A stretch of DNA of 63,502 bases, filler included, from Hausera hauseri (Eukaryota), in NCBI GenBank assembly GCA_046269625.1. It is 11 parts of 11 records of this genome, joined end to end, with 100 filler letters (N's around TTAATTAATTAA, not from the genome) between each part and the next. Parts side by side here need not be neighbours in the genome. Positions count along the whole stretch, not along the records: positions 51,081 to 56,729 come from JBJURY010214077.1; 10 more parts are not named here. One strand, given 5' to 3'. Shown in pieces: positions 1-63,062 of the stretch. Below the pieces are notes generated by a model. The model did not search any database. It was not told the origin of the DNA and was given only the letters and a program-made list of their open reading frames with translations. Numbering within the stretch: the stretch's first letter is position 1; each line of letters begins with the position of its first letter. The position numbers and the translations under genes were made by a program.

Positions 1-1689
1 TTCGCAACCGTTGATATCGGAGGGTTGCTCTCCGGGGGAGCTTCTCCACCATTAAACATGTATCTGTAAACAAACATGCAGATTTTAGCAGACATACTAT
101 CTCCAACGGCACTCATAAAAACTGAAAACCAACAAAAACCCAAAATATTATTCATACAACATTTTGATACCTGAATAAGTCTTATACCACTGGCTTTCAC
201 ATAATAATCACTTGGGACCGTCACAGGGGTCAGCCATGTTCCCTTAGAATCTACTTCGTCACTGTAAGACCCTTTATTAATGCACAATAATCCGAGACTG
301 TTCATTTGTCTTGTTACGGATTCAACATCATATCTTTCAACATCAGGATACTGGCCAGAACCAGCTAATATCACAACTAATTTGTTAAGTGTCAGTATAA
401 CAACAGCTACATTCAGTTCGTATAACCTTCCACGAACATGAAGGCCTTCCAATAAGTTTTGTGCTACTTCACGCCATCCGTTATTTTCTCTATACAGATA
501 GCCAACTATACAATATAAGGATGTCAAATCGAATTCTTTATTGCCTTTATTCGTTCGACTTTGATTTGTAAACTTTTTAACCAGTGTCAATAGACTTTTA
601 AATTGTTTGGGAAATTCCGTATCGTCTCCATCGTGGTTTCCTTTTAATTTATGGAATTCATTTGTTGTTTTGAATGTTTTTTCATCGGTTGGTTTTAATC
701 TTTCTGTGAAATTGTCCAATTCATTTTGCGACCAACAAATCCTTTTTATCAGTTGTCTTGTTTGCGATTTGGATCGTGCGATCTCACCAAAGAGTTGTAG
801 GATCACTTTTCTAGATTGCAAATTCATTATTTGCAAATTAACCAAAGGATCCAAATGTTTGATTTTGAATTTCATAAATTCAATTCTAAATTCAATTATC
901 TTTTCTATAGCATTGAAAAACAATGCATTGGATTATATAGGAAATTTGCTGTTAATTTATTACTTGAATTTTATGAGATATGCCTCATAATGGCTAATCT
1001 CATTTTTGTGGCTAATTTAATCATGTTTTCTTTCTTTTAAAAGCTGCAACATATAAAAACTCTAATTGCGTTATTTTTATACACTTCAAATATTATATCT
1101 ATCTTTTGCTCTTATCCATCCACATTTTTTGCTATTAAAATATCTTCAGCAATATTTTGATGACTTTTATACAAACATAAAAGAGGATTTAATTTCACGA
1201 ATTCGTCTGTTGGGAAATTCATACGATACTTAAACATAATGTAAATAATCTCAATAACTTTCGAATTCAAATTTTTGTTTTCTTATTCATTTATCCTCTT
1301 AGGTATTTCAGTTGCAATTTCATTTCTATTTTTCGTTCTTTTAAGTACGAATGAGATTAGTCGTTCTCCTTGAGTGGATAAAATTTTCGTCGCAATTTCC
1401 AAGTAAATATACAAATATAAACAATAGCCTTCTACGATTGTTCCCGGTTTCCCAGTTCTCAGAATTCCGCTGGAGATCACTCAACTATTATTTTTCACAT
1501 ACATTCAACCATTTCAACTTTGACAACCCTTAATTTTAACAAACATAGTGCACAGCACAATCAACATGAACACACATACATTCATATATACATTATATAT
1601 ATTTCATACATATATACACCCTATAATTTTCCCGTTCACCCTTAGTTAGTCGTTTAATGTCGATCGGATTGCCCAATCAAACAATTAGG

Positions 1690-2110
1690 TTCCGACAATG
1701 CGCGTGAAAATGACTGGTCCGGTAGTGATTCCAAAGGGCATAACATTAAATTCGTATATACCGTCATGTGTCTTAAATGCTATTTTAACGATCTTCGTCT
1801 TCTATCTCTACCTGCCAATATTCATATTGTAAGTCGAGCGTGGTGAACTATTTAGCTCCAAAACGTCTGTCCAAAGTTTCCTTTACCGATGGTAACGGCG
1901 AAAAATCCTTCATCATAAGTGTATTTAATTCTTGATAGTCGATACAAAATCGGTGCTTACTGGTACCTTTTGTCTTAACCATGAGTATAGGTAAATTCCA
2001 AGATCTGTAGCTTGGTCTAATTATGTCCGCCTTTAACATTTGTTCAACATCTTTGGTTATCTCTGGTCTTAATGAGTGTGGAGGAGGATACCATTTCGGC
2101 ATATTTTGAT
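1690..2110 (-). pseudogene. Gypsy reverse transcriptase N-terminal fragment
   Basis: ORF 1848-2102 plus read-through to FTTLDL..YWQV and YEFNVMPFG. Confidence 0.85.
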
Positions 2111-2506
2111 CATTTAAGTCTATTTCGTCGTTAGAAGCAGGCTTCTTTTTAGGCGGAATCGTAAGCCTTAAGGTTTTGGCTCGGCCAATATCTTATTCAT
2201 CTATCGCGATAATCGAACTATAGCGACAAAGTAGTTCGTAAAATCGACAATATGATTCTGGTGAAAATTTAGTCTCAACGTGGGGTGGAAATTCGGCACC
2301 CTTATATGATTTCTCCTCAATAGTGATTGATGATACTCTACACGTGTGTCCCAAAGTGGTATTATCGAACAGTTTAATCGGAGTTGGTGCGTTATTGGCT
2401 ATCCTATTGGCACGCGGCCTGTTGATACTCTTGTCAAAACATTGCTGAGCACGAGGTTTGGATCGAGCAACTCCCTTGGTTCGAAATATATTGGCTAATC
2501 GTCATT

Positions 2507-2947
2507 CTAACGTATCTGAGCATATATAAGAATTTCTATTTCGATTGCTATATTGGGTAATTGTCTCAGTAAGTCATATCCTAACACTATATCATCTGTT
2601 AATTGCTCCATTACTGAGAATTCATGACGAAAAGATTGTCCCATTATGTGAATTACCGGTTTCCATCGGAATTTACTTTTCGAATATTGTCTGAAAGCTC
2701 CAATGCTTCCTGGGTCTGTCGTAGGAGGTGGACATAATTGTTTCCGTAAGAAGTGTGGCATCGAATCATATTTTATCAGTGATATTTCAGATCCCGTATT
2801 TATCAGTACATAAACCTCCCAATCTTCCAATTGAATCTTTGCAAAGGACCTGCCTTTTCTTACTGTACCGTAATAGCTTGGCGCTATCTTAAGTTGTCGA
2901 ATCGTTTGACACTTTGTAGCCGTTGATGGTAACTTCCGTGGTTCCAA
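2507..2947 (-). pseudogene. Retroelement aspartic protease (catalytic D mutated, NTGS)
   Basis: VYVLINTGSEISLI ... HEFSVMEQLTDDIVLGYDLL. Confidence 0.8.
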
Positions 2948-3429
2948 CTGGTTGATCGATTAATTGTCTTAGCTCTCCGATAGGGTAGGGTTCGTTATTC
3001 GTACCATTAGTGTTTTTTACTTCTTGGCTTTTAACTGGCGGCTGAACATCTTGGTTTCGGAGATTGCGTGTCTCACAGATTCTGGTAAATAGTGACTGCG
3101 TTTCATTTGGTCTAGGTAATTTAAGTGAATATATTATACCGTGATCGTCGACTGCTGAGCGACGATGTGGAATAAACGTTCTCTGTGTTTCGTACATCTT
3201 GCGTAATATTCTGTAGCGTTTTGTTCCTTCGTAGAGGTCCTCTATGTTAAATGGCTTCCGATATACGTCTGTCTGACACGAGCTCATAGATTGTTTCTCG
3301 CAATCTTCATATATAGGTGCTGTTGGTGGCAATATTGGTAATGGTAATTTCATAACAGAGTAGTTTTTGTTCCTACCTTGCCTGGTGATGATGTCTCCTC
3401 ACTTAGGCTTCTCTTTATCTGAATTATTT

Positions 3430-4759
3430 CTTTATGTCTTAGCATTTATGAATTTTTGCCTGTAGTCGAATATACCTCTTTTCCGTTTTCGATTATGGTA
3501 GCCAACATATCGTTCTGCATTTGTTTTCCATTTACTCTCTTCATAAGCCTTTAAGAATTGGCCAAAGGGAGTAATAATAGCCGTTAAAATTTTGCATGAA
3601 AATCCTGTCAATGTAAATATCTCGTATCCATTTATGATGGCTTGAATTATAGCTTTTACCAGTTGAATGAAGAAGTATATAGCTAGAAGTCCTGATGCGG
3701 CTTGTCCGAATATCAGGAATCGTCCCCATATTTTGTATAATATTTCAGTGGTTACCTTCTTGTAATAGCCAACACCAAGTTAAGACTCCTATTTTGCTTG
3801 GTAACGCGAGTCCTTTAATACTGTATACATTGCTCTGTTTAATTCACGTGTACGTTGGCAAGGAAAAGCAAGAAATTGTATGAGCGCCTCTACTTCTTTT
3901 GGTCGATAAATAATCTTTGCGGCTGTATCTTGAAATTTGCCATCGGTTATTCCTTTTTTTAGGTTTGTCCCTGTCAATTTGGTAGGTGGTGCGATAATAC
4001 CACCGTTCGTTAGACTTACCCAGTCGGTCTCGCTATGTTTGAACATTGGCTCTCCTAAGCTGGTTTTACAGTCTCTTAAAATCATCGGTTGAGTGGCATT
4101 TGCCAACAACACTCTGGTAATTGGTGTTACTAATCTCGGTATATCCTGGTATATCACTGGGAGTTCTTGTATACACCTCTTCCCTTCCACATTAAACGGA
4201 ACGTCTTTGTTCTTGCACTGATACGTCAATAAGACCTCTCCGGTTACTCACCCAAAAACACCTTCCTTTATCGGAATTATTGGTGATGCCAACTCGGGAT
4301 TTGCGTATATTAGAGCTAGTTTAGTTCTCATGATATCCAAATCAAATTTGCCGTCGTTTGTTATCATGTTGTGGTATAATTTGGCTATTCTGGCTTGTCC
4401 TTTATAGAAGAAGTAGTCGTCTCTGTTCTTCAAGTAATCTTCAATCCGGATATCTCGAGTCTCGAGTTTGAATGTTCTGACGTTTATTTCTGTCTCGGCT
4501 ACGAAAAATGCCTCATAATTGGTGGCATACATTACGACGTCTCATCTGGTGATCATAGCTTTCTTTACAATTTTTAATCCATGAGTATTGGAAATCAGTA
4601 TAGTAGGTGTGGACTGTTTGGCTACATCTTGTCGTGTTTTAGAGTTAGTTTCTGTACCACTTATGTATCGTTTTCCTGTCGTCTCGTTAAATTTAAGTTC
4701 TTTAATTTTCATAAAGTTCAGTAGGGAAAAAATGGGAATTCGGGCACAGACCTTCCGGG
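3430..4759 (-). pseudogene. Chuvirus-like / herpesvirus gB-like class III fusion glycoprotein (env), C-terminal part, with in-frame stops
   Basis: A single frame read through stops gives DVVMYATNYEAFF ... RTKLALIYANPELAS ... GVFG*VTGEVLLTYQC ... RCIQELPVIY ... VTPITRVL ... IYRPKEVEALIQFLAFP ... IWGRFLIFGQAASGLLAIYFFIQLVKAIIQAIINGYEIFTLTGFSCKILTAI. This matches the motif order of chuviral glycoproteins (GEV..C, CY.ELPV, IY....L..FP, membrane-proximal WG.F..FG..SG plus TM). Confidence 0.85.
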
Positions 4760-24690: not shown

Positions 24691-27600
24691 TGTAATCCCA
24701 TCGATTTCAGATTTTGTAAAAACAAAGATGGCAATCCATTTTGCGTCCTAACGGTCAGTCAAGACGATCAAATTAAATGTGCAGAAGATTTGATTAATCT
24801 CATCACAGGAAAGATAGTTGGTGGTGTAACGTTGCGTCCACGCATTCTGGTCGATAAAGTGGTTGGCAATTCAAATTATATCGTTTTTCCTGAATCTGAA
24901 ACTGTCGATGATATGGTCAACACAACTCATTTCGAAAAGGGGTTTTATTTCGTTCAATTGTACACGGAACGTGGTTTGAACAATAACGTGGTGTTGTTTC
25001 TCAGAGATTTGTATCGGAATTATGAATTGAAACGGTTACCATCGCTGAATTTTGGTGAAATCGGGACGATCAATTGTTTGCCACGTTTTATTTCGATGAA
25101 GATCAGTTTCATCGTGTTCGGGTTTTGGATAAATCGGACTCATATCGGGTAAAGTTGATTGTTGCATTTTTATATCTTGGCTTTCTTTTAATGGATTAAT
25201 TTTTTTGCTTAATATTAAAGTGTATAGTTTATTTCAATTTTTGAAAATCAGGCAGTAAGTTTCTCTCAATATTACCTTTTCTTTTTCGTTTTGGAATAGT
25301 AATTTTCAAAATTGGGTAATTCTATTTTTAAAATCCCACAGGTCAAAGTCATGTTCATCGACTACGGTAACGAAGAATGGGTCACCGTTGATGATATCTA
25401 TCCAATCAGCAATAAACTCCGGGAAATACCTCCACTGGCTCACAAATGCACCATTGATGGTGTCGTTATCGTCGATCCGGAGCGTCACCAAATTGCGGCA
25501 GCAGACGTTCTCCACAAAAACATGAAAGCCAGTCTGGTAAAGGTATACGATTCGCAGCTGAAATCCGATCGTGTTGTGGCATTGGATTACACAGATTTCG
25601 CGTCGATTAGCTATCGGAGATATCTCGTCGGCGAAGGAATTGCCGAGCCGGTTCGATGCGAGAAAGTGACGAATAGCGTGGCTGTTGAACAAATTTCGAC
25701 ATTTGCCGATGAACTCGTCAATGGGCATTCGTCGCGTCAATGCACAGCAGTAATTACGCACATGGATAGTCTGACCGAATTCTATTTGCAACCGGATTTT
25801 GTTAGTAATAAGGCGAATTTGGATAAGGTATGTCAGTTGATTGATTCGGTAATGGAACATGATAGGTTGGTTGTAATGTTATTTATTGAATAAATTTGCT
25901 AAATACTCCAGAATCGATTTGGAATATTCCCGTGCAGATATTCGTTATTTAAGTCAATTCAGCGAAGATTGCAATTGGTATCGTTGCGAGGTTGTCAAGG
26001 ACAGATTTAGAAATGGTTACTGCATTGTGCGGTACATCGATTACGGGAATAGTGAACAAAAGACTGAGTTGTCTAGCCTGAAACCGCTGGTAAATAGAGT
26101 TAATGTTAATCAATGGTAATTCTGATGTTGTTCAGACAAAGGAATGGAATGCGGATGCTGATGCATTGGGGAAAATTGCGCCGTGTGCTGTCAGATGTAA
26201 ATTTGATGATGGGATGATGAGCCAGTTGAATGAACGTGGTGTGACGACTGCGGCATTTACTGAGATAATTAGTCAGACGAAAATGGTCAATGTGACTTAT
26301 ACAGAAGATGACGAATGGCAGGTTGGTGATGAATTTTTATCATGTAGAATTTGATGATGTCGGTGTAGGGATGGGTTATTCACGGAATGACGGTCGATGG
26401 GACTGATTTGTGGGGTGAGGTTGAGAAAACTGCTGCATCTGATGGAGGAATTGAGGAGTCTATACAGTACCGACTGACAAATATCGAGTCACCAGAACAA
26501 CTCTGGTTCCGTCTGGTAGACACACCGGATGAATCACGGAAATTGCAGCTGACTGCCATTGCCGAATGGATTGAACACGGTAGTCACGGTGAAGGGCACG
26601 TTCTGGCATTGGCGAAAGATGAATTGTACGGTGCTACGTTGGTAGATGGTAAACTGCACATGCGGTGTCGTATGATTTGCCGCAATATGAACAGAGTTGT
26701 CGTGCAAGATGTCGACACCGGTGTCTATCATATTGTCCCGCTGAAATCCCTTTTTTATCTGCCTGACGACATTTTGAAAATCGCTCCATTGGCATTGCAC
26801 GTGAGATTGGTACTAAAGAACATCCGTGTGCCGGAGGTGAGTCATATCCAATGATAATCGATAATCCAATGTAGAGAGAGGCCGAATTGAAAATGGAGAA
26901 GTTGCTGTCAATGAAAGACGTCCGTCTATTGTGGTGCGGTGAGGGGGAAATTAGTGACGTTATCGTGCGGGATTGTGGCAGTCTTGTCGACTATCTGACA
27001 AAATGCCGATGTATTCGTAACAGTACTCTCGATGATGATTGTCTCAATGATCTGCCGGAATGGCTGTTGCCTGTTGGCGAGGTCAGTGAAGTCGATTTCA
27101 ATTTACCCAGTATTGAACAATTGGCCGAATTACCAACGGAAATCAGTTATTTGAACGCTAAAGTGAAATTTGCCAGGAAAATGTTAAATAAACAAGGCCA
27201 ATGTGCGCTAGACGAATTGTGGTGTGTTGTCGACAATTGTGAATCAATTCGGGATTTGTGCATGAGTTGTGACAATGTCGAAACACTCTGTGACGATGTC
27301 GATAATTTATCAGACAAATTTGTCGATGCAGTTCGATCACCTAAAACGAAACCCAAAGATCTGGATTCGTTGATTAGCGGCAGGAAAATTCTCTGTGAAC
27401 AAATCATGTCACAACATCAGATCGTTGAGTCGTTGTTGTTGACATTTCCATACGAATCCGTTGTCCAGTTACGAGACGGCATCCATCGGATGAACACGTG
27501 CATCACCGGCATGCTCACCGTGTTCAACGGCACTACCGACGGATGTTTCCCTGCAGAAATTGACATTCGTACAGTCCAGTCGCAGGTCAATGCATACCGG

Positions 27601-29209: not shown

Positions 29210-30104
29210 AATATTTGTATTATACTGCAGCTGCATTTAATGTTTTGATGTTCACATTTTCGAAGAATAAACCGTAGACTTTTTAATTGGGTTGCGCATA
29301 ACCTTATGGTATGCTTTTATAATTTTCCATAAAATTAATTCAACTAATGAACATCTGTCACTTAAAAATTCGATAGATTTCAGATGTAGGAATAGAAATG
29401 ATGAATCAATTGCAAATATGAAATGCTTTTTGACAGTTGACAAATTTATAATATTCAGGAAGTACAGAGGAATTACGAATACTAAAACTGAATTAAACCA
29501 CTCATTTATCGTCATTTGATGGATAAGGGAAGGTCGATGGCAATACATATGCTGAAAATGCGATGCAGATTTTTCTGTAATCATCATTGCTAGCTACACT
29601 TGTGGCTTGAATAGATTGCGTAATAACATCTGAAGGATATTCGGTTGTTACCACCGTTTTGCCAATGTTGATGTAGTCGACTACAGTTTTGGGTAATTTG
29701 GCGTATTAAAGGCATGGTATAAGCGGTAAAAATATACATTTCATTATCTACCAACAGTCGAACAACATTCAATCACCTATACAATGGTGGCAATATCATC
29801 AACAGACAATACAAAACCAGCACATTAGAAGGCATTAGTAATCATTGTGGACATGTTTGTTAAAATAAAAACGATGCTGAATATTTCATAACCGGCCTAG
29901 ACTGTATGGAGAACAAAAGTAATTTTAATAACAGGATGTAAAAGTTTTGCCGTCCTATGCTATTGTGAGCAGATATTCAGTTGAATGTGTTGCATTTTTG
30001 AAATACATCAGTGGATAAATGCTGATTCCGCCTCAGCCCTTAGGGAGGGGGGCTAAGGCATAACGGGCATTTCATTCAAGGTGGTTTGATAAAGACACAA
30101 TGTG

Positions 30105-30830
30105 GCTGTTCTCATATTCTTCCCTTCCACTATTTCATAGTCTAGCTTCTATCTTCATGTTGCCGACGCATCCATATCATACAGTACGCATGCTTGTGTG
30201 TATCACTAAAAAGTCAATATTTCCTATTTTTACCTATTAATCATACCAACAACACATAAATGAACCGCGTTTATTTTAGTCATTAAGAATCGATATTCTC
30301 ACGATCTGCATCTTCTCATATCCTTCCTTCTGACATGTCCAACACTTTAATCCATTTATTTCGTCGTATACTTGGCTTCATGTTGTCAGCGCATCCGCAC
30401 AATGCAATACACCTGATTGTATGCATCACTTTTGAAAGTCAATATTTCATATTTCCACCTATTAATCATGAATGTGTGTATTGTTTTAGTTCACCGGAAA
30501 CCCATCTATGAACCACATAGTCAGTAAGAGGAAAATGCAAGGAAATGCAGTATTTACTCCAATCAAATTTCGTAAGATATTTAATCTAAACAAATTTGAC
30601 GAGTGTAACCGAATGGGTATTTCCTCCGATAATTGTTCCTAAGAATTGTAAACAAAGTTGGTGTAAAATTTGAAATTTTAAAACTCTTAAACTCATTTGA
30701 ATCCATGTAGTCTCGTGCGTGTGAGTATCACTTTGATAACTGTGTGACTCCTATCTACGCCTAATTAAACATGCGTGTGTGTATCGTTCTAGCTTGCCTA
30801 CATTCCATCTATGAACCACATCGATTTGAG
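30105..30830 (+). repeat. Cluster of the dispersed repeat: two tandem subunits (30105-30245, 30310-30470) and copy 2 (30700-30830)
   Basis: TTCTCATAT...CTTCATGTTG..GCATCC...ATCACT..AAAGTCAATATTTC..ACCTATTAATCAT occurs twice; the last segment matches 15797 and 63063. Confidence 0.7.
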
Positions 30831-30944
30831 TCAGTAGGGGAAAAATGGCGATTCTGCCCCACCATCGTGGGTGTCCGCCTCGATAAATCGATAATGCACA
30901 TGTGCTAATCTATAATGCACGGGGTAGTATGCCTGTGGACGGTC

Positions 30945-31430
30945 ATTAGATTCTTCGAATAATGCATGCTTTACCGAATATTCGAGTTCGAACAGCTAAT
31001 TATTCAAATTGTGAGCTCGAATTCGAATATCTANNNNNNNNNNCCGATTCGACGTACATGACTTCCTCTCCCGCCACGCTTATAGATTTATTGATTTCCG
31101 CTTTACCGGGCTTTAAATTCACATTTTGTTTAATAATAAATATTGATTTTGTATCTATATAGTACATTTTCATAGAATAATTTTTATGCATAGGGGATTT
31201 TCGAATATGAGGAATCGATTCCCGCTGTTAGATTTTTCGAATAGTTCGAACTTCGATATTTCGGCTCGAAAATATTCGAATATTTGATTCGAGATTGCCA
31301 CGCTAATTATAATATCGAATTTTTTTCCTTTTGGACCTAAAAAACTTATGGGTAACTGTCCCAGTTGCATTTATCGATTAGTTTTCGAAGAATATCGATC
31401 CAAAATACAACTGGGACAGATACCCATGAA
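30945..31430. repeat. TTCGAA-rich repeat, probably a non-autonomous DNA transposon remnant, with a 25-bp inverted repeat
   Basis: Many TTCGAA/ATTCGA motifs; arms 31348-31372 and 31403-31427 match at 23/25. Confidence 0.55.
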
Positions 31431-42554: not shown

Positions 42555-43559
42555 TGTGGTGCACACAGCGGCCGGCGCCCTCTAGCCCATTCGGTTGGAC
42601 ACGGCCGGGTTTCCGCCGCCGCTGCGTCGTGCTCATAGCGGGCCCCGATCTCCCGCCTCAAAAGAAATTACGACAACATTAACAAATTCATATGTGTTTC
42701 AATACGCTATCGTTCCATCCGAATTACAGAACGTACACATATCAAACTACTTAAAGTTGCCCATTCCTCCATCTCATTCACCACCGTCAGTCAATATCAG
42801 CTAAAATGTTTTGCAGTTAAAAACATCAAATGTCGTCACCAACGGATTCTCCAATCTTTCTCCATCCCCAATTCAGATTCCCGTTCAGATTCAGTCATCA
42901 ATGACTCCTCAACGTTTCATCATCAATTCTCAGCCGGTGCTCTTCATTAATCGATCTCTCCAGCCGTCGAACCCATCCTTCATTACACCTCCACCACCTA
43001 ANNNNNNNNNNNNNNNNNNNNNNNNNNNNNNNNNNNNNNNNNNNNTTAATTAATTAANNNNNNNNNNNNNNNNNNNNNNNNNNNNNNNNNNNNNNNNNNN
43101 NAATCTGTTCTACGAAATACAATTAACATTTATATATTTAAAAATAGTCAAATTGCATCTGGATCAAATTTGAAACGATATCGAAAGCGTCAGAATTTTG
43201 TTCAGAATCTGGTGTTATTTCATAATGAGTTATTCATGATGTTTTAATTTAAATTTATTAGGAATTTAGTCTTGGAATTCGTGTTTTCAGAAATTAATTG
43301 TGTATTTGACGTATGTAAAGTTCTTCGAAATGTTAACTACTACAAAAAATGTCAAATTCTCCGTGAATTTAATGATCTGAACGGTTACGACAAAGAAACT
43401 ATTTCATTTCAGGCCTCGTTTAATGTAAGTTTAGAAAATGTTAAGACGATCAATCAATATATTCAATGCAAAGCTAATTGTATTATTTGGGAATTATTAG
43501 TACACTATGAAGTAGATAATGTTATGGATTACAAGACAAAAGATCGTCAGTTGCGAATA

Positions 43560-44680
43560 TTTGTGCAGAATGTGAAGAATGGAAAAAACTAAATGAAATA
43601 ATAGTAATCTTTTCTAAAAAACGTAGCCATTTAAAACAGGCTGTAACAAAAATGGTTCAAAAGGTCTGTGAATATGTTGAAAAAAATCCAAATGAAGGAA
43701 CTATGCTTGAATTAATAAACTGTCTGCGAACCATAACTGAAGGAAAGATTTACGTCGAAGTCGAACGGGCACGAATTAGCAAACGGTTAGCCGAAATGAA
43801 AGAGTAAAAAGGTGATATTGAATTGGCTGCTTCCATTTTACAAGGACTCCAAGTGGAAACGTCTGGCAGTATGGGGAAAAAAGAGAAAATCGAATTTATT
43901 CTTGAACAAATGAGATCTTGTTTGGCGAAAAAAGATACTGTACGAACTCAAATTACCAGCAAGATATCATCTCGATCATTTTTGGACGAGAGCCTAAAAC
44001 TATTGAAATTGAAATATTTTCGATTAATGATTGAATTGGATTTAGGGGAGAACAAACATCCGAATGGCAGTAAGCATTTTTATCAATTATATCAGACAAA
44101 AACTATAAATGCTGTCGATGCTAACCGTTTGGATAGTTTGAAAAATGTTATTATATATTTGTTATTATCTCCGTACGATAATGAATAGAACATTTTACTC
44201 TATTAATGTAAGCAAACATGCTCAAAAGATTTGGAGAAATTGCCAATGATGGAGGAAATTATTGATGCATTCTGCACAAAGGAAGTTATGTTATGGAGAC
44301 ATTTCTGCTCAAAATTCGAGAGCCAACTAAAAGTTGATTCTGTTTTCACAGGTGAAGATGGAAACAAACGATGGCAAGAACTCAACCATCGAGGAATCGA
44401 ACATAACATTCGAATTATGGCATCGTACTACACGCAAATTCGAATAAGCAACATAGCGAAAATGATGGATATTGATGAGAAAACCCTTGACAAATTTGTC
44501 TCGGAATTGGTAGTTTACAAGTCAATTGAAGCAAAAATCGATCGGCTTCCTGGAATCATGCGTTTCATTCAGTCGAAAGATGCTACCGACATGCTTAACG
44601 AATGGTCATACAATATCAACCAGTTACTTGGGTTGATGAAGAAAATCAAATGTATGCTATATGTTACCAAGTCTAAGTGA
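43560..44680 (+). pseudogene. PSMD12: Intronless 26S proteasome subunit Rpn5/PSMD12 pseudogene fragment
   Basis: SKKRSHLKQAVTKMVQ, LRTITEGKIYVEVERAR, LQVETSGSMGKKEKIEFILEQMR, EHNIRIMASYYT, AKIDRL; in-frame stops. Confidence 0.93.
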
Positions 44681-45294
44681 GATAAATCTAAAGATCGCGT
44701 GCATTTTAAACGAGGAATGCGATCTGACCACCGAAGTCACCGAAATAAACAAAATAGTCATGTATCTCCAAGTCCGAAGTAAGATGGAACAAGATTTATT
44801 CAAATGGAAAAGAACGAGAATAACAAGAATGTTAATGGTGATGAAAACGCGTGCGATCTCGTAACATTTTCCGACAATGAGAATTTTGTCGATTCAATAA
44901 GTAATGAGCAGATTCAAGATTGGATTAAAAAGTTTGATTCGGCTTCGGAAAACAGTAATGAGATTTGGATGTATACTTTGAAAGTCGTGAGACCGCTTGA
45001 CGATTATCGAATGAAGTTTCTTGAGAATTTTGAGTTTCTCTATAGTGATGAATCGGATAATTTTTCACTGGAAGACATTTTCAGTTATGACGGTGATCGA
45101 GAATTAACAATACAAAGATGCGATGAACTAAAAGAGTACCTTGACAGTTTGCCATGTAAAGGCCTAGAGCGACTGAGTAATTGTCATAAAATCATACGTA
45201 GTTCATTAATCGAAACATTGGAAGCTATTGTTGATAATTTACATCAAAAAATGGATAATAATCGAACTACGAATGAAGTTGAAGTAGAATTTAA

Positions 45295-45567
45295 GAAACT
45301 CTACGTGCCTCACTTTACCGTGCGATCTGTAAAGCCAGGTCGAACTACCGAGTTTCGTTTGTTAGACAGAGTAGTTTTCGTTGTCGAATGCCATTGCGTT
45401 CCGATTGGCCTTAGAGGTATAGTCATCGGCATCGAACCAAAGGCCAATGTTGATAATTGGATTGAAGCTTTCTTTGATAAAGAGTTCCCTGATGGTACTG
45501 AAATTCGTAGAAGTCAAAATCGATGCAACAGAATAGAACCTTACACGTTAATTGATGTTTCTCATGG
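45295..45567 (+). pseudogene. XRN1: XRN1 SH3-like domain fragment
   Basis: EFRLLDRVV..VPIGLRGIVIGI..FDKEFPDG..LIDVSHG. Confidence 0.88.
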
Positions 45568-45569
45568 AA

Positions 45570-45852
45570 TGAGTGCGCTTGTAGTGTATATTGAAAAAAA
45601 ATGGTTCCGACTTTAAACAAAGGAAGAATTTATGCGTCTGGACGGATATTTTCGAGTAAAGTACAAACTGGGTAGAAAGTTAGAATCAAGGGTCCGAATT
45701 ATGTTGTTGGTAAGAAAGAATACCCTTGTGCGAAAAGTATACAAAGAACAAACTTGATGGTGGGAAGGCATGTGGAGGCCATCGAAGATGTGCCGTGTGG
45801 TAATAATCGCAATCTTGTTGACACTGATCAATTCTTGGTTAAAACTGAGACA
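45570..45852 (+). pseudogene. EEF2: Elongation factor 2 domain II fragment
   Basis: [60 protein letters not shown]; frameshifts and a stop. Confidence 0.92.
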
Positions 45853-45869
45853 AACCTATATCTTAACGT

Positions 45870-46115
45870 TTTCAAAAAGATCGGAAAACCTTTGTTTTCA
45901 TCTTTATTGAAAATCGACCAGTTTGGCAATAACTATTACGTGAATATTCGAAATGTTAACGAACATCTTTCTGACCATTATGTAATAGAAGCATTGAACA
46001 AAGTTGGAAAAGATTCATGTTTTGTTACATTACTGGTTTCTGATATACCGTCAGCTACAAAAGGACCGTTATCTGTAACACAAACAGCACCATGTACTGT
46101 TCAACCTTTGTGGAA
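45870..46115 (+). pseudogene. Titin/twitchin-like Ig-Fn3 junction fragment
   Basis: [36 protein letters not shown]. Confidence 0.6.
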
Positions 46116-48578: not shown

Positions 48579-50980
48579 ATGAGAATAGACAACGCTGTAA
48601 TCATTTATAAGAACAAAATGTGGAATAGTGGCGAAGCAATACAAAGAATTCCACATGGGACAATAACAAATATCAATTGTGGACTGAAAGGAGGAAGTGT
48701 TAATGAAAACGAAGATTTCGAGAGTCGATTATTGGCCAAAGATGTATTAAGATACGAGTTAATAGTCCAAAGAAAATGGCTAACGATTGGTAGATTAACA
48801 GAATATGGATTTTAATGCCAAAACAATAAATACGATAAAACCTTCAAGAAGTTATCTATGGAGATCAGCGCATTGAAATTACTCGCCAGAAAACTAAAGA
48901 AAAAACAAGAATTAGCGGAATTGATCGATGAGTCAAAAAACATCGAAGTACAAAATGAGAAAGTAATAAAGATGATCCAAATGAAAAATCTTATGACGTT
49001 AAAAGACAAATCAGACGTGAAAATTCGAAATGAATATCTAGCACCAAAGTTAAAACGTATTGAGCTTCCGAAATTCGGTGGGAACGTTGCAGAATTTGAG
49101 AAATGGCGACAAATATTCAAAACGTGCGTAGACAAAACATCACTTTCTAGCATAGATAAGCAGATCCAATTAGAAAATTGTTTATATGGAGAAGCGAAAC
49201 GTTTAGTTCAAAGTTATGATTTCTCAGAAGATTCCTACAAAGCAGCAGTCGAAAAATTGGAACAATATTATGGAGGAAATCAGAGGAACTATGCTTCCCT
49301 CATGTCCGAAATTATGGAATTCCAGAAAATAAGTGTGCATAATATCAAAGAACTGGATTCCTTTGCTACGTTGTTGGATTCGGTCATCGTAAGGTTGAAA
49401 CATTTAGACCGTGAAATAGAGTTGGAAGGCGGTCTATTGTATCAAAATTTAATCCAAAAATTACCCGAAATTATGGTATTAACATGGGAGCGATATCGTG
49501 AAGATAAAGACAAAAAACGAAACGTACAAGACTTGAAAGTATGGATAGAGAAAGAAGCAGAGTTGAAACGTATTGCTGCGGAAGGAGTACATGGAATAAA
49601 TGTTTTGATGCCGAACAAAAATAGATAACTTGAGCGATCAGTAAAGAATTCGTTTTTTACTAATAAAAAGGAAGAAAAAGGAAAGTTATCGGACAAGATT
49701 GGGTTTGGTAATAAAGGAAAAGAAATGAAAGAAATGATAATTGTTGGAAAAATAAAGGGGTCCAACAGAGACCTTGCAAATATTTTTTAACTGGTAAATG
49801 CCAATTCGGTGAGTTATGTAGGTTTCAACATGAAAAGAGAGATCAGAATAGTTATAAGAATATAAATCAGAAACTCTATATATTTTCAAAGTGGAAATTG
49901 CAGATACGGTGGGGACTGTCGGTTCAAACATGGAGATTCTTCAAATACTTTGAAACGAGAAATCAATTACTCAAAGAATCTTGTTAGAGAATTAGATAAA
50001 ATTGAGAAATCTAAAAACCCTCGTTGACATTGACAGAACAAAATCACGATTGAACGAGAATTCTTGCCAAACAAATGAAGGTGATTATTCAGACAGGCGA
50101 TCTTACATGACAAAAATGGAGGAAGAAAAGTCTGAAGCACTAGATAAGATAGCTTTGAGGACTGTGTCAGTTTACTTAATTAACGAAAACAAGAAGATAG
50201 AAGTGAATATGTTATTGGATGACGCCAGCACTGACAGTTTCCTTGAAAAAGACATTGTACGACAATTAAAACTCAGTGGGAAAGAGAAAAACGTTACTGT
50301 AGCAGTAGTTGGAGGCATGCAACAAAACAGAAGATGACTAGAGTCCATATTATCTTACAAAGCTTGGATAACAGTATTCGTGAACAATTCAACGAGCTAT
50401 CCATGAGACAACCAACAGGAAAATGAATGTTGTCAACTGAACAATAGAGAAAAAACGATGGCTACATTTACGAAACATTAAATTTATAAAAATGGGGAAA
50501 GGAGAACATGTAGATGAAATTATAAGTGCCAATTATAGACACCTCCATAGATCCATAAAAGAAATATCGGGAAAACCAGGAGAATCACTAGCCCGATTGA
50601 CTCCTTTTGGTTGGACATGTGTAGGAATTCTGTATAAACGGAAAAGTAATATAATACGAAATAACTTAGTGCGGACGTACTGGACCAGGGTAGGCGAAGT
50701 GAACGATAATAACAAGATTGTAGGAAATTGAAAATTCGATTGAAGAAAAAGAAACCTAGTCGAAATTAGATAAAGAAATTCTCCAAATCACGAAGGATAA
50801 CATGAAGAAAACCGAAGATGAAAGGTAAGAAATCTTTCTACCATGGAAAAATAAAACATAAGAGATACCAAAATCTAGACAAATGGCAAAAAAGAGACTC
50901 GAATATCTAGAGAAGGAATTAAACTCAAATAATTCTGTGAGAACTCCTTACAAACAAGTTATCGACGATCATATCAAAAA
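48579..50980 (+). mobile_element. Decayed BEL/Pao LTR retrotransposon (gag DUF1759-type, protease, RT start)
   Basis: KLKRIELPKFGGN..FEKWRQIF..LYGEAKRLV..YKAAVEKLEQYYG; LLDDASTDSFL; ARLTPFGWTCVG; LPWK. Confidence 0.92.
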
Positions 50981-51080
50981 NNNNNNNNNNNNNNNNNNNN
51001 NNNNNNNNNNNNNNNNNNNNNNNNTTAATTAATTAANNNNNNNNNNNNNNNNNNNNNNNNNNNNNNNNNNNNNNNNNNNN

Positions 51081-54000
51081 GCGTAGTAGACCCGTTGGAG
51101 AATACAATTATCCGATGGTTAACCAGATAATTCCTTACTTCAGGATAGTAAATACTCTAAGAACAAATTTAAGCAGCCTCCCATTGGACCGAGAGGAATT
51201 AGATCAAGTATTGCATAGTTTGGTATATCAACTACTACACCACTTCATTGTCAATTCCTTACAAATATGCCCCCGGGATCAAGCTATCCCAAGGACTATA
51301 AAGAAGCTACACATTGTAGCAAATAGGACCGAACAATGGCTAGACCATATCGAATCAAATAAGGATCACCCTAGCGCCACACTTTGTATATTCAGAGAGA
51401 CTCCTCGCGAATGGATCAAGGATAGCATTAATTGTTTATTGTTATGTGGTAGTGTAGATCAATTACCAAACGAGGATAGAAAAGATTTCACGAAATTATA
51501 CATTATCTTATACGGATCATATTTTGATCGACTAAAACAAGAAATCGGAATAAATTTTAAGGAATCAGATTATAAATACCAATTACTTCTGAAAGTTAGC
51601 ATCTTATATACCTCTTATACAATCCCAATTAATAGTTTACTATCCTGCCCAGTGAGTGACTTTAAAGCCGAAGTATACTACGAAGGTTTTTACCTATTTT
51701 GACAAATTCTAATAGAAATACCCATACAAACTATATGGCTACAACCTACTAATATTATGATAGTAATTTGGAAAGGTGCGATGGGGATACCAAGCAATGA
51801 ACTTATATGTTCAAAACATAAAGTACAATTAAAAGTCCGACTTCAAACCCATTCTATATTACAGATAATACGCTGAATTCAGTCGCTTGACCCACTGATA
51901 AGAAAATACCGGATAACTTACGAAGAAACTATAGTACACGGAGATGAAGACAAATATCAATCTTTATTCGTCGGAAGTCACAGAGAACATGTGATAATCA
52001 CTCGTTTCTTACGAGGAAAAATATTGCCATTTCCTGTAGCAGACATAATCAGTCTTCTACAGAGAATCTCCCCAGAATTAGTAGAAAATTAGCCTCCGAG
52101 AAGAATTGCTAAATTGGCCAATAGGTGTCTAGGATTATTCAAGTATTATGGCGAAGAGCTAACAAATAAAACTCAAGCAGATTCCTTTATAAACAATTGT
52201 TGGATGGTATGCACACTAATGGCAATAAAAGATGATCTTATCCAGGAAGAGATAGATGCCTATGAAGAAGAGGCGCAAATAGTATGGAATAATTATCTGA
52301 ATAGGAATATAAATACACCATTAACCCCGTTGGATTACGAAGATAGAGACACATTTGATATGATAAACGCAAGTGTATTTTCAGATAAATTAAATGCATT
52401 ACCGTACCATGTAATATTCTGCGATTTAAATGGCAGTCAAGAAATAGTTAAGTTATTCAAAACGGAACATGAAAGGTTAATAAATACCCGTCGACTAAGA
52501 TCAAGTAATAAAGAAAAAGTGACAACAGATATAACAAAGATTATACGACGATTAAATGCCTTCGAGAAACGAGTCCAGCTTATCCAAAATGGAAAAGCGA
52601 CGATGACTACGATGAGACGGAAGGAAATGAAGGAAATGAGGCACAACACGAAACATTTCACTCCAGCATCAATAAAGACCAAACAGTGGCGAGTAATAAC
52701 ATTAATCCAGATGAACCCATACCTATTAAGATAACTGAGCACAGTACAGAATGAAATTACGAATTCTGGCATCCATAAGGAAAATGATACCGAAACATAG
52801 CCGATATCGGGGAAAATGAGTTTAGCAACGGATTCACTTACTGAACACTAATGTTACCTGCTGTACTATTCATATTATTCGGAACAGCCGAAGTTACTCC
52901 TCCGACAACAAGTATTAATCATGAAATGTCATCTATATGGTTATTATGATTAATCTTAGTCAACTTAATGTTTCGCATGAAGAAATCTGAACAATCAAAC
53001 AGCGACGAAGAGATTACTCCAACTGAAAGACACACGGTAACTGAAGGAATTCCAACTCTTAAACCAAGACATATGAAACGTCGAACATTAGCAAGAATGA
53101 AGGAAATACAAATTAATAAGTCCTTGTTACCCGATAGTGATAAGGAAAATATTGATTCTACGGGCGAATACTGCTACAGACAAACAAAGTCGAATGAATC
53201 CCGAAACTCATCTCTATGATTATCTTGACAAGGAGAACGTTATGAAAGAAAAATGCTACAAGAAGATAAGCGAGAAAACCAAATCTTTATTAAGAATTTT
53301 GATCAAACAACATAATGATTAAATTTAGACGGCTCAGTACAATTAAACCTAGAAACTTAGGCTAAAAATCCAAAGCTGAATCGCCATTATCTACAGACAG
53401 TAGGACAGAAAGAAGAAATTATCAGTAATAAAAAGGAGGAAATTTATTCGCCATTCGACATAATTTCAGAGGAAACGCAAATAATAATAGCTCTAATAGC
53501 AAAAGGAGTAGAATTAATAGCGAAACACCCCTATTTAACTACTAACAAAATAATTCCAATAATTTGTGATATAAACAAGTTTTGTGAGAACCGTCATGAA
53601 TTGTCAACCGAAGAATATGAACTCTATAGCGGCCAACCGTTTGGTCCAATTACCATTAGAAAACAGAAGCCCCGTAACAATAATCGAATAAAGCCCGGAT
53701 AAACGGATGAGGATTAAAGACCTCAGACAAGCCTATGTAACTCATCTACAATGGAAAAAGGAAATTAGACAATTGGATTTGGCGGGAAAAAATGCACTAT
53801 TAATGTACCAGAACGGAATACAACTATGTCGAAGAAGTAACACGGACGTCTACCAAATATTCAATACGCAAAATCGCTTATGAGAAACACCTGACAATAT
53901 CAGAAAAGAACTTATATCCTTCTACCTCGACATGTACAAGAAATATTTCGAGCAATATCAGAAGGAATCAAGATACAATCCTAACACTCATCTCGTGAGA

Positions 54001-56729
54001 GATAACTTAATACTAATCACCAGATTTCAATACCTACTTTCTAAGGAAGCACTGCACGATGGCAGATCCTTTAGAGAACGTTATGAAAACGAACGAGCAA
54101 ACTATAATTCACGATTGTGAATATTTAACGAAATCATGAATGTATCTGGTTTAAAGCTTTCTTGGTACAACCCTATGCATGAATAAGCTAAAGCTTGGAA
54201 TTATAGATGTGGAATAAAATCCATTCACTTTAAAAATCGGAAACACGAGCTAATAATTATGCACGAATTACAACTATCAACTATACCACAACTGATAGAA
54301 AAAATACGATCAGTCGACTTATTTAACATAATACATGATTTCAATGCGGATGAAAAGCTCGTAATCAGATCCAGCATGGATTACGAAGCCTTATTTATTC
54401 GTAGAAAAGCCGAACGAAATTTCCTGACTAAAGTTCTCCGAGGTGATAGAGCTTCCTTACCAGTTAATCATATTAGAAAACAAATTGAAAACGAATTAAC
54501 TGGTATAAATAATTATGTTGATGATCATGACATGTACAGTGTAAGTAATTACTATCTAACCTTGTATGAATGGTTTGGACTGGAATTGAGGCCACAGGGT
54601 AATTGTGACATTTATGACCCATGAATCACAGCTTACACAATTATAGCATTAAAATGTAAGCTCGATGAAGAAGCGTCACAAGCAATAGAAGAAAAGAAAA
54701 TTAAAATTCTATGGAATAAATATTTGAAACGAAACTTCAATCAAGAACTCTCTGAACAAGATTACCAAGATATATACTCATTTGTAATGTAAACGCAGAA
54801 GGATTATCTGGTCGAACAACTGCTATCCGATACCGCTTAATATTTTGTTCACTATCAATACCAAATAAAAAAGCCGAAAATTTTAAATTAAAACGAGAAA
54901 GAATAATAACAAAAAGAAAGTCAATCGGTTGAGCCAAAATCAATGATTGGATAAATTTTGTGATTAAACCCTTAAGTCCAGTAGCACCAATGCTTATACC
55001 ATCATTTTTAATTAAGAAAGGTAACGCAGAAATAACTACCAACATTACGGTACCAGCAAACGAATCAAAATTCCCTCCAATATCCACACAAGAATATACT
55101 ATTTTTGCAGTAATATTGACACCCTTAGTTAGTCACATAATAGGAGCAGTGATATTCTTCAACAAGAGAGTTAACCGATATAAGCAATTCAACTCCATTA
55201 AACAAGATATATTACCAACAACCAGCGTATATATAATTGGAAGCAACCTAATACCCATGGTTAAAGCCAAAACATGCAACAAAGGAGCATATGCGTACAT
55301 TCAAACAATGGGCATAATAACACTAATGTTACTAATATCATTCGTTTTTGCATTAGCCAGTTACGCTGCAGTACTAATCTAAAGGTTTTATGAAATACGA
55401 AGAGCGGTAAGATGAAGAGTACAATTAATGTTAGACCTGGAAACAGCCAATGGGGAACCACCCCGAAAGTACGACGATGTTTCAGGCAAGTCTCCACGAA
55501 TTTACAAACGAATAGCAATACCTGTTGCTTTGTTAGCACTCAACGTAACCTCAACCGAAGCAAGTCAATATAAATACGCCCTCGTACCTACCTTACCAGT
55601 TGTGGATGTTAAATCATTTTTGTTGCTAATGTTTCTAATCAGTCTAGCCAGTAGCACTATAGTCGAACTAATAGTAATAGCATTTTATAAATGTTGCCGA
55701 GTAGCCAGATACTATCAAAAGGCAACTAAACAATCATCTTCTCCTAATTACCAGGAAAACCAAGGAAACTATGGTAGACCAAACTCAATTCTTCTATCTA
55801 CCCTGGTAATATTCTGTTTAATCTGAAATTGCACTGCTCAATCAGTCAGCTCAAGTAAACAAGGATATTCGAAATATGTAAAATTTTGTCGTACGTTTTA
55901 TGAATATAGGTGGTCGAACAATTAACAGAACTAATTCGATTCACAAGACTACAATGAGACAAGAAAAACGAGCAAGTAGGGAAGAATTTTTAGGTAAAAC
56001 TCCTACCATGCTGGTCCCAAAAATCATTCCAAACCACATGATAACTAAAGTAGAAACGACCGAAAATTCATGGTCAAAAGATCTTCATATACAACGACAA
56101 CTAAAGGAATCGTCAGCCGTTTTAACAAAAGGAATTTTTAAGAGTCATACATGGTCGAGAGTTGAATTGGAAGATATACCTGGATGGGTGATAAAGAAGT
56201 ACAAATGGAACTGAATAGAATAGCGATAGATCAATATATCATTTCAGAGAAGAACACATTCAAACCAGTTACAGATACCATATTATTGGAATTTGGTAAA
56301 ACCAACAAGGAAATGTCAGCAGAAGATAAACTTTTGTTGTTAGAATCGTGTGATGCGACAGGAAATTGTGAGATAACAAAAGGCAACACCAGGGACAGCT
56401 CAAAATACAGAAATATAGCATCAGTAAAAGAAAGATTCAAACTTTACATGAAAAATAATATCGACCGATCAATCGAAGTACATGACATAGCACATTTATT
56501 GCGAATGTTAAACAAGCCACTCAATCAAGATTTAGACATAGAATGTGAAATTACTAATTTGAAGAAACAACACCCACAACAGAATCTAAATGAAATCATA
56601 CACACCCTCCACCAACAATATTTGCGAAATCAAAAAACTGACAGCATTGAAATAGAACCAACTAGAGATATAACGAGAGAATCAGATGTTGAAACAACCC
56701 ATAAACAAACCTGGCTGCGTATATTTTTA
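51081..56729 (+). pseudogene. Decayed A-rich polyprotein-like region with a duplicated unknown domain and several transmembrane segments; probably viral/retroelement-derived
   Basis: Long frames continue through stops; protein-level internal duplication; no introns evident; no recognisable family. Confidence 0.55.
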
Positions 56730-56829
56730 NNNNNNNNNNNNNNNNNNNNNNNNNNNNNNNNNNNNNNNNNNNNTTAATTAATTAANNNNNNNNNNNNNNN
56801 NNNNNNNNNNNNNNNNNNNNNNNNNNNNN

Positions 56830-59037: not shown

Positions 59038-59399
59038 AGTTTGTACCTCGCTAGACTTTTGAGAGTTAAATAAATACATACTGGCGAACAGCGCCACTTA
59101 CACCGAATAACTTTGATACAGTTGGAATTCAAAATTAAAATTGAATATATAGGTTATTAAACGGGGATAAATAACGTTAAGTTCGAAAACAAATATTGAT
59201 AAGTCAAATATAAATCTTGTTCTAAAAGAAAACCCGCCTATACGCCATACGCGTAGAAACGTATATAGAAGTACTAAAAACTCGGATAAGCGTTCTTTTC
59301 TGAAAGTAGAGCTAATACAGATTTAACCGCTGTTGAGCGAACTGACAAGTTTAAAATTCCTCTTACGAAACTTAAGGTTAATAAAACGAAATTTGAGAC

Positions 59400-61765
59400 T
59401 AATCACGTAAATAAAATAGCAGCAGATAACCCACCTGTAGCGCAGAAGTTAAACATCTTCACTTTTGATTCTCTGAATCTGCCGGCATATGATAGTGACC
59501 CCGACGGGTTAAATGAATTCCTGAGAACTTATAAATTGCACGCAGGTGCTAGCCTTCCTCCGGAAGTGATGATTAAACACTTGTCACTATATCTGAAAAA
59601 TTTATCCGCTGACGCTTATAGTGAGCTTACAATTGATAAAAAGAAATCTTGGTCCTCCCTGGTAGAAGCATTAAACCGTAAATCATTGCCGACCGTACCG
59701 CCGCAACAAAAACTTATGGCCTTTCAAAATAGAATGAAACAAAAGGATGAATCGGTAACCCAGTTTGCATTCGCATTGAAAAAACTTGCTAACAGTTATA
59801 TAAACACACTGAGGATAGCCAATGTGGCTAGAGCCAAAACGGATGCGGAACGCGATGCCGCAGAAAAAGCAACACCGCCAGACCTAGATGTTATGATGAC
59901 GACTCAATTAATCCATGGTATTTGGTCCTGAGATTTAGTTAAACAATTGATTTTGGCTAGACTTAAGAATTTTGAAGGAACTTTACAATTAGCACAAGAC
60001 TTCGAGATGGCTCTTGATAGATACGCCAAGCACGGTGAAAGAAATGACAATAATGATCGTAGTGATAGGAATCGAGTTGATAATCGATGAAGGGACGACA
60101 GACGATATGGGCAATATAAATTATGGGAACATAAATAATAATAACAGTTACAGGAATGTCCGAAGCAATAACTATACTAATGAACAAAATACGAATAGAT
60201 CGGATTTTAGCTGGGATAGGAATAGAAGGAACTACAGAGGTTAGTTAAATCACAATGATGATAATCGAAATAATGATAACCGAAGAAATGCAGATAATGC
60301 TCAAAGTTCAAATAGATCTAAGTCACCTGTGAACGAAGACGGTCGACAGAGTCGGCAGAAATGGAAATTTAATTTGTTTCACTTGCGGAAAAGGAAATAT
60401 TTCAAGGTCATGTCCAAACCCACGTAGCGTTTCATTTGCAGAGCCAAACAAGACTAGTATGATTAGAGTTAATGAAAATTTAGACGCAAAGTACGGTGTT
60501 CGCGGAGACGCAGGTACTATCATCGATATACAAGACTTACGAAGATTTCTGGATGCTCAATCTGAGACTATTAATCCACAGATTCTGATGGCCAGAAAAG
60601 AATATGGAGACAAGCTGAGACTATTAGAAGTATATCATAGTTTAGTGGAACCCGAAACTGAATATGAGAATGCAATAGCACCCACACGGACTGATATGAC
60701 GCGAAAGAAGTGTTCCGACGAGTAATAAAATATCTGATATACCAGGAACCTCGACAGAGGTCGACTTAGATGCAGACCCTGAGTTCACGGTCGAAAAAGT
60801 GGATAAGTCTACTGATGACGATACAGCCGAGAAAGAATTTATGTAGCCACTAATACTCAAAATTACGAAAAATAGAGGCCGTAGCCCTTCCTTAAAAACG
60901 AACCGTAGAAGTTGTTCACGCTCCAAAGTATCTAGAGAGAAAATCGAAGCAGCGAGAGATACAAACATCGCTGTAGAAAGCGACAGAACATAGTTTAAAC
61001 AAACCAGAAATCAGTCCATTCACACCTGTAGAGGCAAAGGAACCTACAGAGTCATTTAATGAAATCAACGAGATTTGCCCAGTTCCCACTAGTGAGGAAG
61101 AAACGGTAAATATTGATGATTTTGATCCAAGAAAGTGGAAGGTCCGACGTTCATGGAAAAACGCTGATGAGTTAAAGAAAATGAGAATTAGATGCCACGA
61201 TCCAGAAATACTACAGCGTAATTTAAAAAAGCTTAAGCTTATGGACGAACAAGTAGATATATCCGGAAAGGAACAACAGTATGCTGAGAGGTTACATAAA
61301 AGTTCAAAATTATGCAGTAAAGGAAAACTCGATAAAGCAATCGACTTAAGACAACCTGAGGAGGTACCGCCTGAAACGTTGTTTAAACGGAAGCATGAAT
61401 TAGAATCATGGAGTAAATGTGCAGTCGAATTTCCGGAAGGATGGAGCAAAAACGAAGAGTGTCGACGTAAAAGCCGCTAAAACTCAAACGTTATTATCTA
61501 CCTTAGAAACAACCCAAAACTGGAGAGTGGTCCGTAATTTAGAACGTATGATGGATAAAATTCGCCGTGCAGTGATTAATCGGCTGAGAGAAAAAGCGGT
61601 TGGCCATCGAAGCAATATCGATTTAGAAATATTGGGTAGATATTTCTCCCTTAATGGAGATGATAAAAATCGCATTTGCTGTACCTAAACAATACACGAA
61701 CCTAGAGAATCGAATCAAAATAGAAAATGAGACGCAAGAACAGATTTATAACTTGAGAAAACGAA
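59400..61765 (+). mobile_element. Decayed gypsy-type gag (capsid, N/R-rich linker, CCHC) followed by a non-protease extension
   Basis: LPAYDSDP, RMKQKDESVTQFAFALKKLA, CFTCGK-GNISRSC; ~1.3 kb of further coding-like sequence with no D(S/T)G motif found. Confidence 0.75.
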
Positions 61766-63062
61766 TTGTCCCCAAACCACGAGGAGAATCAATACGTAGT
61801 AAAGGCTTTTATCGTAGAATTGGACGAATATAAGGACGAGTTTAATTATTTCGGCTGGATAATGAATTTCCTAAAAGGGCCGGACGGTGAGTTAAAAGAT
61901 GCATATAAGATGTTAGATAGGGCAAGAAATAAATCCTTTTTTTGCAAAATGGAATACAAATCGTGCTGTCTTCAATTAGATGTTGACGACAACGGTAAAG
62001 TCGTAATTGTCGACAAAAATGAGAGTTGCTGAACAATTTAATGAAAACAGTGACAAAATAACCGATGAAACTGTTGTGTATGAACAATTTATTTATACTA
62101 CTGACAAAATAGCCCATGAAACTGATATGGATAAACCTGTTGTAGAGGAAATAGCTGTAGAACAATTTGAAGACATTGATGTGCATGAAAACAGTTACAA
62201 TTTTGCTGATTATGCAAATGAAGAAGAATGTCATGAGAAAAAGTCCTCTCATAAGCGTATAATTTATTTTCAATATATACTCTAATTATTTTAATAGGAT
62301 TATGAAAGTACAGATGAGCAATCGTATGATGATTATGTAGATCAACTATCAACATTGTCAGATTGTTAAAAGCAAACAGGATGTCGATATTACCCATCTC
62401 ATTGACCAAATAACTGATATTGAAAGTGATGAACTTAACGAAACTACAATTATACATGTGGCCAAATTTCCAACTACTCTACGCGAACATATTCAATTAT
62501 TTGCTCGGTGTATGATGATTTATGACAATATAATGAAAATTAATAAAAGAAAAAATTTATTAACAATCATCTTTGTTTTATTAATAAACTGTGCTTATTA
62601 ATAAAACTGTGCTGTTTAATAAATTTTTGTGTCCTTAATTTGATAGTTTTTATCGTGCATAAAAAACAAATAACTGAATGCAAAATTTAATATCATATTA
62701 CAATACATTCATTGTCTATTAAACTCAACAATCATATTGTTCAATTCATTCTGACTGTTTTCTAATTCTTTTACCATTCAGATTATCTTATCCGTCATCG
62801 AGTAACTAATCAATCTGCTTCGTATTACCTCCAACAGAACCTCGGGTGCTACATACACAAGATCATGACGTAGTAAACAAGTTCTGCACTTCATATAATC
62901 CTTGATGAATTTCTTGTTTCAATTTAATCACTGCTGAAGACAGTCATTTTTGATTGAAATGAAGCCAAGATATTTGAACTAATTGGTTGAGACATTTTCA
63001 TAAGTGACACTTTAGCATGGGTATTTAAAAAAGCTTTCTGAAATTTAAACAAAAATTTTTAC

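Follow-up and report, generated by a model that had tools for sequence, protein, structure and literature searches.

A piece of the genome of Hausera hauseri (record JBJURY010214077.1 of assembly GCA_046269625.1, at positions 51,081 to 56,729 of the stretch analysed here) contains two copies, A and B, of a protein domain that matched no known family, and this duplication is real, is old, and was conserved at the protein level before the present copy decayed. The stretch, hereafter the window, is 63,502 nucleotides (nt) long and consists of 11 pieces of 4–8 kb chained by ten identical artificial spacers of 100 nt, with stops in all spacer frames, so that the adjacency of two pieces does not imply genomic neighbourhood. 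Its content is eukaryotic and most likely animal, judging by a BEL/Pao gag, a Tudor gene and PSMD12. An earlier note, made by reading the sequence, had described a ~380-amino-acid (aa) domain duplicated within a decayed polyprotein; the true length of the unit, the membrane hairpins, the high copy number and the make-up of the window from separate pieces were absent from it and are reported here. As the carrier we favour, with modest confidence, the decayed accessory region of a large, Burro-like long terminal repeat (LTR) retroelement polyprotein, in which the two copies would be cytosolic, tethered by hairpins and likely cut apart by signal peptidase.

Results

An old duplication conserved at the protein level

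Copies A and B lie on the + strand in a common frame, and their local alignment comprises 74 identical residues in 300 (24.7%) with a score of 222, compared with 37.7 ± 5.2 (maximum 63) for 1000 shuffled sequences and 49 for the reversed sequence; tblastn between the copies gave E = 1.2e-18. The in-register protein alignment proposed earlier thus stands far above chance. The shared frame is strongly depleted of stops (3 in 549 codons where 40.6 are expected, and 4 in 358 where 27.2 are expected), the identity between the copies at the three codon positions is 0.42/0.55/0.37 against the expected 0.27/0.29/0.30 (294 codons), and different codons encode 32 of the 72 residues identical between them. 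At the nucleotide level, none of the 8 rows listed by a self-blastn of the window matches copy A to copy B, and gapless scans gave only a faint diagonal at ~2427 nt. Therefore, from the protein alignment, the stop depletion, the codon-position identity and the absent blastn match together, the duplication is old and was maintained as protein; the great age that had been supposed is supported. The residues shared by the copies are mostly L, Y, E and I.

The duplicated unit measures about 550 aa and not ~380 aa, since it extends beyond the limits first assigned on both sides. On the 3′ side, 52363–52728 aligns to 54789–55160 across a frame change in copy B (score 89 versus 26.7 ± 4.6; 0/2000 shuffles). 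On the 5′ side the unit reaches the edge of the piece, where a direct comparison was equalled by 9 of 2000 shuffles, and a relative described below, P0004, aligns with its residues 352–618 to 51094–51882 (E = 8e-9). Two of the motifs listed originally need correction: the pair IKKL..TEQW / IKDL..HLQW alone is not significant (1237/2000 shuffles reach its score) but keeps its register in the three-way alignment with P0004, and YRLIFCSL, the last motif of copy B, lies in a frame that differs from the remaining copy B. Twelve comparisons found no third copy of the domain in the piece.

A single relative supports a polyprotein

A HMMER search with the two-copy profile through 1,835,955,588 proteins gave one match, the 622-aa protein P0004 (E = 2.4e-39), an unnamed singleton from a 2053-nt contig, in which no Pfam family was found at the cut-off. 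Its residues 137–618 are collinear with 52815–54309 (29% and 43%; E = 1.7e-74): residues 137–387 align to 52815–53624 with 29% identity, residues 410–622 share 90 of 199 positions with copy B, and residues 352–618 also match copy A at 22%. In P0004 a single open frame runs through hairpin and linker and on over the first half of copy B, which supports the reading as a polyprotein. For the linker plus copy B, the decayed polyprotein described earlier is thus borne out; for the passage from copy A into the linker it is not, as P0004 residues 1–140 have no significant match to the end of copy A (202/1000 shuffles reach the score). Copy B as a separate gene, suggested by a stop followed 4 nt later by an ATG at 53707, was rejected because P0004 reads through 53700–53707. 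A further match of P0004, to the start of the BEL gag (E = 0.004, without composition correction), was taken as a charged-coil artefact.

The features of the piece are collected in Table 1. Over its 5.6 kb, coding is on a single strand without introns, with stop-poor frames throughout.

Table 1. Features of the piece carrying the duplicated domain and of its flanks in the window
Feature	Position	Strand	Remarks
Whole piece	51081..56729	+	Coding end to end; belongs to a diverged repeat family of high copy number; truncated by a spacer on either side
Spacers flanking the piece	50981-51080 and 56730-56829		Artificial
Copy A	51091..52750	+	Core 51289-52434; in-frame stops 51700, 51874, 52090; 5′ part cut by piece edge
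Two-helix hydrophobic hairpin between copies	52833..52980	+	Hydropathy; basic residues follow
Charged linker	52980..53540	+	Contains several stops; P0004 reads it in one frame with copy B
Copy B	53540..55150	+	Core 53707-54860; stops 53881, 54118, 54184, 54622
Copy B frame changes	~53700 and ~54760-54790	+	
Five to six hydrophobic segments after copy B	55098..55830	+	Hydropathy; no Pfam match
Further coding sequence	55882..56729	+	Open reading frames (ORFs) of 110 and 203 codons; cut by 3′ edge of piece
BEL/Pao gag-protease	48816-50980	+	Similar composition to piece; separated from it by spacer

The domain matches no family in the libraries searched

No family reached the cut-off in Pfam, PHROGs or NCBIfam, nothing under E = 0.04 was found in PDB by sequence or profile, and GDSL and DEDDy had no match in the piece. 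Word-index searches for homologues, run at near lengths with copy A and at longer and shorter lengths with the two-copy alignment, were also empty, which counts for little since those searches missed P0004. Related loci were absent from 2.9 million viral contigs in close-range scans, from metagenome contigs and from phage records, and Rfam gave 0 matches in the piece. The statement that the domain belongs to no known family therefore held in every library searched, a scope that lies outside Repbase and Dfam; transposon libraries and eukaryotic assemblies may contain it unannotated. The titles and abstracts listed by literature searches contained no description of such a duplicated domain or of a transposon-borne Ninjurin, a kind of search that cannot find an unnamed sequence.

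AlphaFold models of the domain had pLDDT of 34 and 41. These low-confidence models alone say that the domain is mostly alpha-helical, as had been supposed, and with such pLDDT values the Foldseek results (nothing at E ≤ 0.001 from either the viral library or PDB) are uninformative. The alignment of the three sequences has 26 invariant columns, including three Trp, four Tyr and a G-I-x-S...H stretch, in which the His is the only obvious residue of catalytic type, and none of 19 hallmark motif patterns is present in both copies. Given the carrier proposed below, there would be about an even chance that the domain acts not as an enzyme but as a membrane-tethered scaffold or an accessory protein modulating the host, a role favoured because the copies share no hallmark motif and the His is the sole obvious invariant residue of catalytic type; an enzyme of unrecognised fold would, for the same carrier, be a doubtful proposition. 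An envelope glycoprotein of gB type or F type found no Pfam match here, each copy having 4–10 cysteines, and the same scan does find PF24664 elsewhere in the window.

Hydrophobic segments follow both copies

Neither copy core has a hydrophobic segment, and the charge of both is balanced. The hairpin between them is homologous to residues 141–195 of P0004 (score 84 versus 29.4 ± 5.0; 0/1000 shuffles). In P0004 a small-residue site, TEA↓TP, follows the first helix and three basic residues follow the second; three basic residues follow the second helix in the window hairpin as well. The -3/-1 rule for signal peptidase sites and the positive-inside rule are established, and both were applied here by a simple script, without a trained predictor or chance control. 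By these rules the first helix appears to be signal-like and the second stop-transfer-like. The same script found the small-residue sites TEA↓SQ and CTA↓QS in the segments after copy B, which may be of signal-peptidase type.

We propose that this topology, with a signal-like helix, a short loop, a second helix and a basic tail, would put copies A and B in the cytosol, and that signal peptidase would cut in the hairpin loop and separate them. The products would be a copy A with a C-terminal anchor and a copy B with an N-terminal anchor.

Polyproteins processed by signal peptidase are typical of enveloped RNA viruses, and the hairpin modules would also be compatible with the polyprotein of an unknown RNA virus that was endogenised and then passively amplified by retrotransposition or segmental duplication. 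Such an origin is decidedly unlikely, as the piece has no polymerase, helicase or glycoprotein motif, the 4–10 cysteines per copy form no ectodomain pattern, and the only match in the search of 1.84 billion proteins is a singleton without a name; moreover, the even pile-up of contigs across the whole piece, described in the next section, better suits an autonomous element.

The ORF at 55416–55823 (+), which lies in this downstream hydrophobic run, has Ninjurin as each of its three best atlas clusters, with scores of 0.78–0.79 that are at chance level, since one third of shuffled proteins reach 0.8 and the recognition value is 2040, below 2300. A profile match to Ninjurin (PF04923) at the family cut-off was absent, and the Pfam and PDB scans of this ORF were empty; the weak likeness concerns this downstream hairpin region and not the duplicated domain. 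A very unlikely elaboration is a giant, envelope-carrying retroelement lineage whose virus-like polyprotein is cut by host signal peptidase into membrane-anchored products; these would include the two diverged copies, with a new fold, and a hairpin resembling Ninjurin and able to break or reshape membranes, and would form an undescribed machinery for the exit or cell-to-cell spread of retrotransposons. Further downstream, no Pfam family was found at the cut-off in 55882–56729, and the last ORF had no usable atlas match.

The piece belongs to a dispersed repeat family

In the contigs of one public run, possibly the source sample, 5799 contigs align to the piece and fill 30 of its 30 bins; 264 of them are at least 99% alike to it, 545 are 95–99%, 1801 are 90–95% and 3189 are below 90%, with 1039 transitions and 357 transversions. 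As a control, 3071 nt of a host gene were covered by one contig without a difference, at a depth of 11.5, and relative to this single-copy control the summed depth of the bins, which is not copy number, was 9.6–258x with a median of 53. The longest aligned contig segment among those listed was 739 nt, and the ends of the element lie outside the piece. In the plain reading, the piece belongs to a dispersed repeat family of tens to hundreds of diverged copies. No RNA run was among those listed as containing the stretch, which carries no information on its expression. Some other copies have small indel differences near two of the frame changes, so at least part of the breakage is specific to individual copies.

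The summed depth over copy B (53727–55238) is about six times that over copy A (51270–52781; median 177 versus 30x baseline), which may reflect more detectable relatives of copy B or family members without copy A.

The high copy number and the orphan status would be compatible as well with a cargo or structural gene of an amplified DNA-based element, such as a Maverick/Polinton, a Helitron or an endogenous large DNA virus, and DNA-based elements do carry many unassigned genes. They do not typically encode one long polyprotein on a single strand with hairpins inside it, however, and the piece shows neither a motif nor a family of Rep, polymerase, ATPase or capsid and no relative in the viral contigs scanned above. 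Thus, we consider a DNA-based carrier unlikely.

An expanded host gene family is improbable

An expanded, lineage-specific host gene family, membrane-anchored, two-domain and now largely pseudogenised, is highly improbable. It would fit a genome that has decayed intronless copies of host genes (PSMD12, XRN1), but no intron interrupts the 5.6 kb of the piece, in contrast to the short GT..AG skips of the host Tudor gene; the codon style of the piece is also unlike that of the Tudor gene, and it has no named relative.

Three loci in other pieces of the window were noted. At 43550–45900 (+) lie in a row a decayed, apparently intronless PSMD12 (Pfam E = 1e-64) and XRN1 (E = 7e-14), followed by an EF2-like fragment seen by eye without a Pfam match, all upstream of a BEL/Pao gag; these are possibly captured or retrocopied host genes. 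In the Tudor-domain gene at 25749–26874, some contigs of the run skip stretches of 40–46 nt, two of them GT..AG, which points to introns of very small size and to RNA or intronless copies among the contigs. Beside this gene, 29990–31033 is a very high-copy short repeat with a summed depth up to 139,000.

The carrier is probably a large LTR retroelement

The assignment to a large LTR element, namely to its accessory region and most likely in a Burro-like gag-accessory-env-pol order, is drawn from the long, intron-free, single-strand, A-rich polyprotein, its many decaying copies and the LTR-rich window. Like an LTR retrotransposon, the piece belongs to a multi-copy dispersed family, and most other pieces of the window are LTR-element remnants. 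The frequency of A at third codon positions is 0.39–0.49 in 5 of 5 segments of the piece, 0.43 in the BEL gag and 0.39 in the env of the piece at 1–4759, and 0.21 in the host Tudor gene.

Several points weigh against this carrier. Third-position A is 0.37 in the decayed PSMD12 copy and 0.24 in another LTR integrase, so that A-richness, being common to the former and absent from the latter, is weak evidence. None of gag, protease, reverse transcriptase (RT), RNase H, integrase, env or LTR was found in the spacer-cut 5.6-kb piece or linked to it, and the Burro accessory domains MATH, BIR, BCL2, ankyrin and ubiquitin-like had no Pfam match in it. None of the other 10 pieces of the window resembles the piece, the best scores among 360 comparisons (62 and 61) being compositional on inspection. 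For the processing model, small-residue sites are common by chance, and the script did not pick a matching site in the hairpin of the window itself; nor do the hairpin after copy A and the segments after copy B align significantly (475/1000 shuffles), a 14-nt exact repeat with a spacing of 2475 being the sole link between them. That summed depth is not copy number, and that the run may be the source sample, count on the same side. The piece may cover only an unannotated part of a Burro-like polyprotein, and we do not place it within any family.

The BEL/Pao gag next to the piece carries no demonstrated link to it, because artificial spacers bound the piece. A BEL integrase C-terminus before an extra ORF was looked for at the start of the piece, where there was no Pfam match. 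The decayed element at 1–4759 (−) has a fusion glycoprotein of Monjiviricetes type (PF24664, E = 1e-35) and, downstream of it, a weak RT (E = 0.009); inspection by eye showed a protease-like motif in the interval. This layout indicates that gag-env-pol carriers exist in this genome. At 59290–62500 (+), a gag-like ORF with a CCHC-like knuckle precedes long decayed coding sequence without a Pfam match, possibly another gag-accessory element.

Discussion

LTR elements are already known to carry accessory ORFs without an assigned function, some of them transmembrane (PMC5408684, PMC11952523, PMC10309623, PMC6338049). Burro (GYPSM1), the giant Ty3/gypsy element of planarians, is described as having a polyprotein of ~4,900 aa with accessory domains between gag and env, of which only half is annotated (PMC6431247). 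The family reported here resembles it, by description and not by sequence, in the high copy number, the decaying copies and the probably very long polyprotein with large unannotated parts, while the env-before-pol layout is seen in the window on the piece at 1–4759 and not on the piece with the duplication; the section of that description consulted makes no mention of an internal duplication of ~550 aa anchored by hairpins. The same source reports that the accessory ORFs of Terminons, giant Penelope elements, encode coiled coils and transmembrane domains (PMC6431247), which would accommodate the piece as the structural ORFs of a Terminon-like element. This origin is the one to which we give the least credence, since the piece has no Rfam match such as a hammerhead ribozyme and no tandem or telomeric repeat, and a Penelope RT is not linked to it.

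For the Burro-like LTR carrier that we favour, further parallels are partial. GAG-ENV-POL errantiviruses with a gB-type env are reported from Nematoda, Bryozoa and Platyhelminthes (PMC13524379); the piece at 1–4759 shares their layout, and the piece with the duplication has no match to a gB-type or F-type env. The non-env ORF3 of bdelloid LTR elements (PMC5408684) and sORF2 of the MDG1 group (PMC11952523) are likewise transmembrane accessory proteins without homology to known env. However, these are short separate ORFs of ~220 aa or less, whereas here the hydrophobic segments lie within a polyprotein around two large soluble domains. CERV of the Caenorhabditis elegans element Cer1 is a precedent for a novel LTR-element accessory protein with an essential non-enzymatic role, although, compared by description, it is nuclear and made from a spliced mRNA, unlike the membrane-tethered domain predicted here (PMC10309623).

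In conclusion, as long as it has neither a fold nor a linked pol the domain is an orphan within a genome rich in repeats, and its value is for now limited by this. Nevertheless, a constrained two-copy domain that is widespread in the genome and has one other record among 1.84 billion proteins provides a concrete handle on the content of giant LTR elements. If it is true that signal peptidase cuts the hairpins, the retroelement would use the processing logic of enveloped RNA viruses for accessory proteins that are not envelope proteins.

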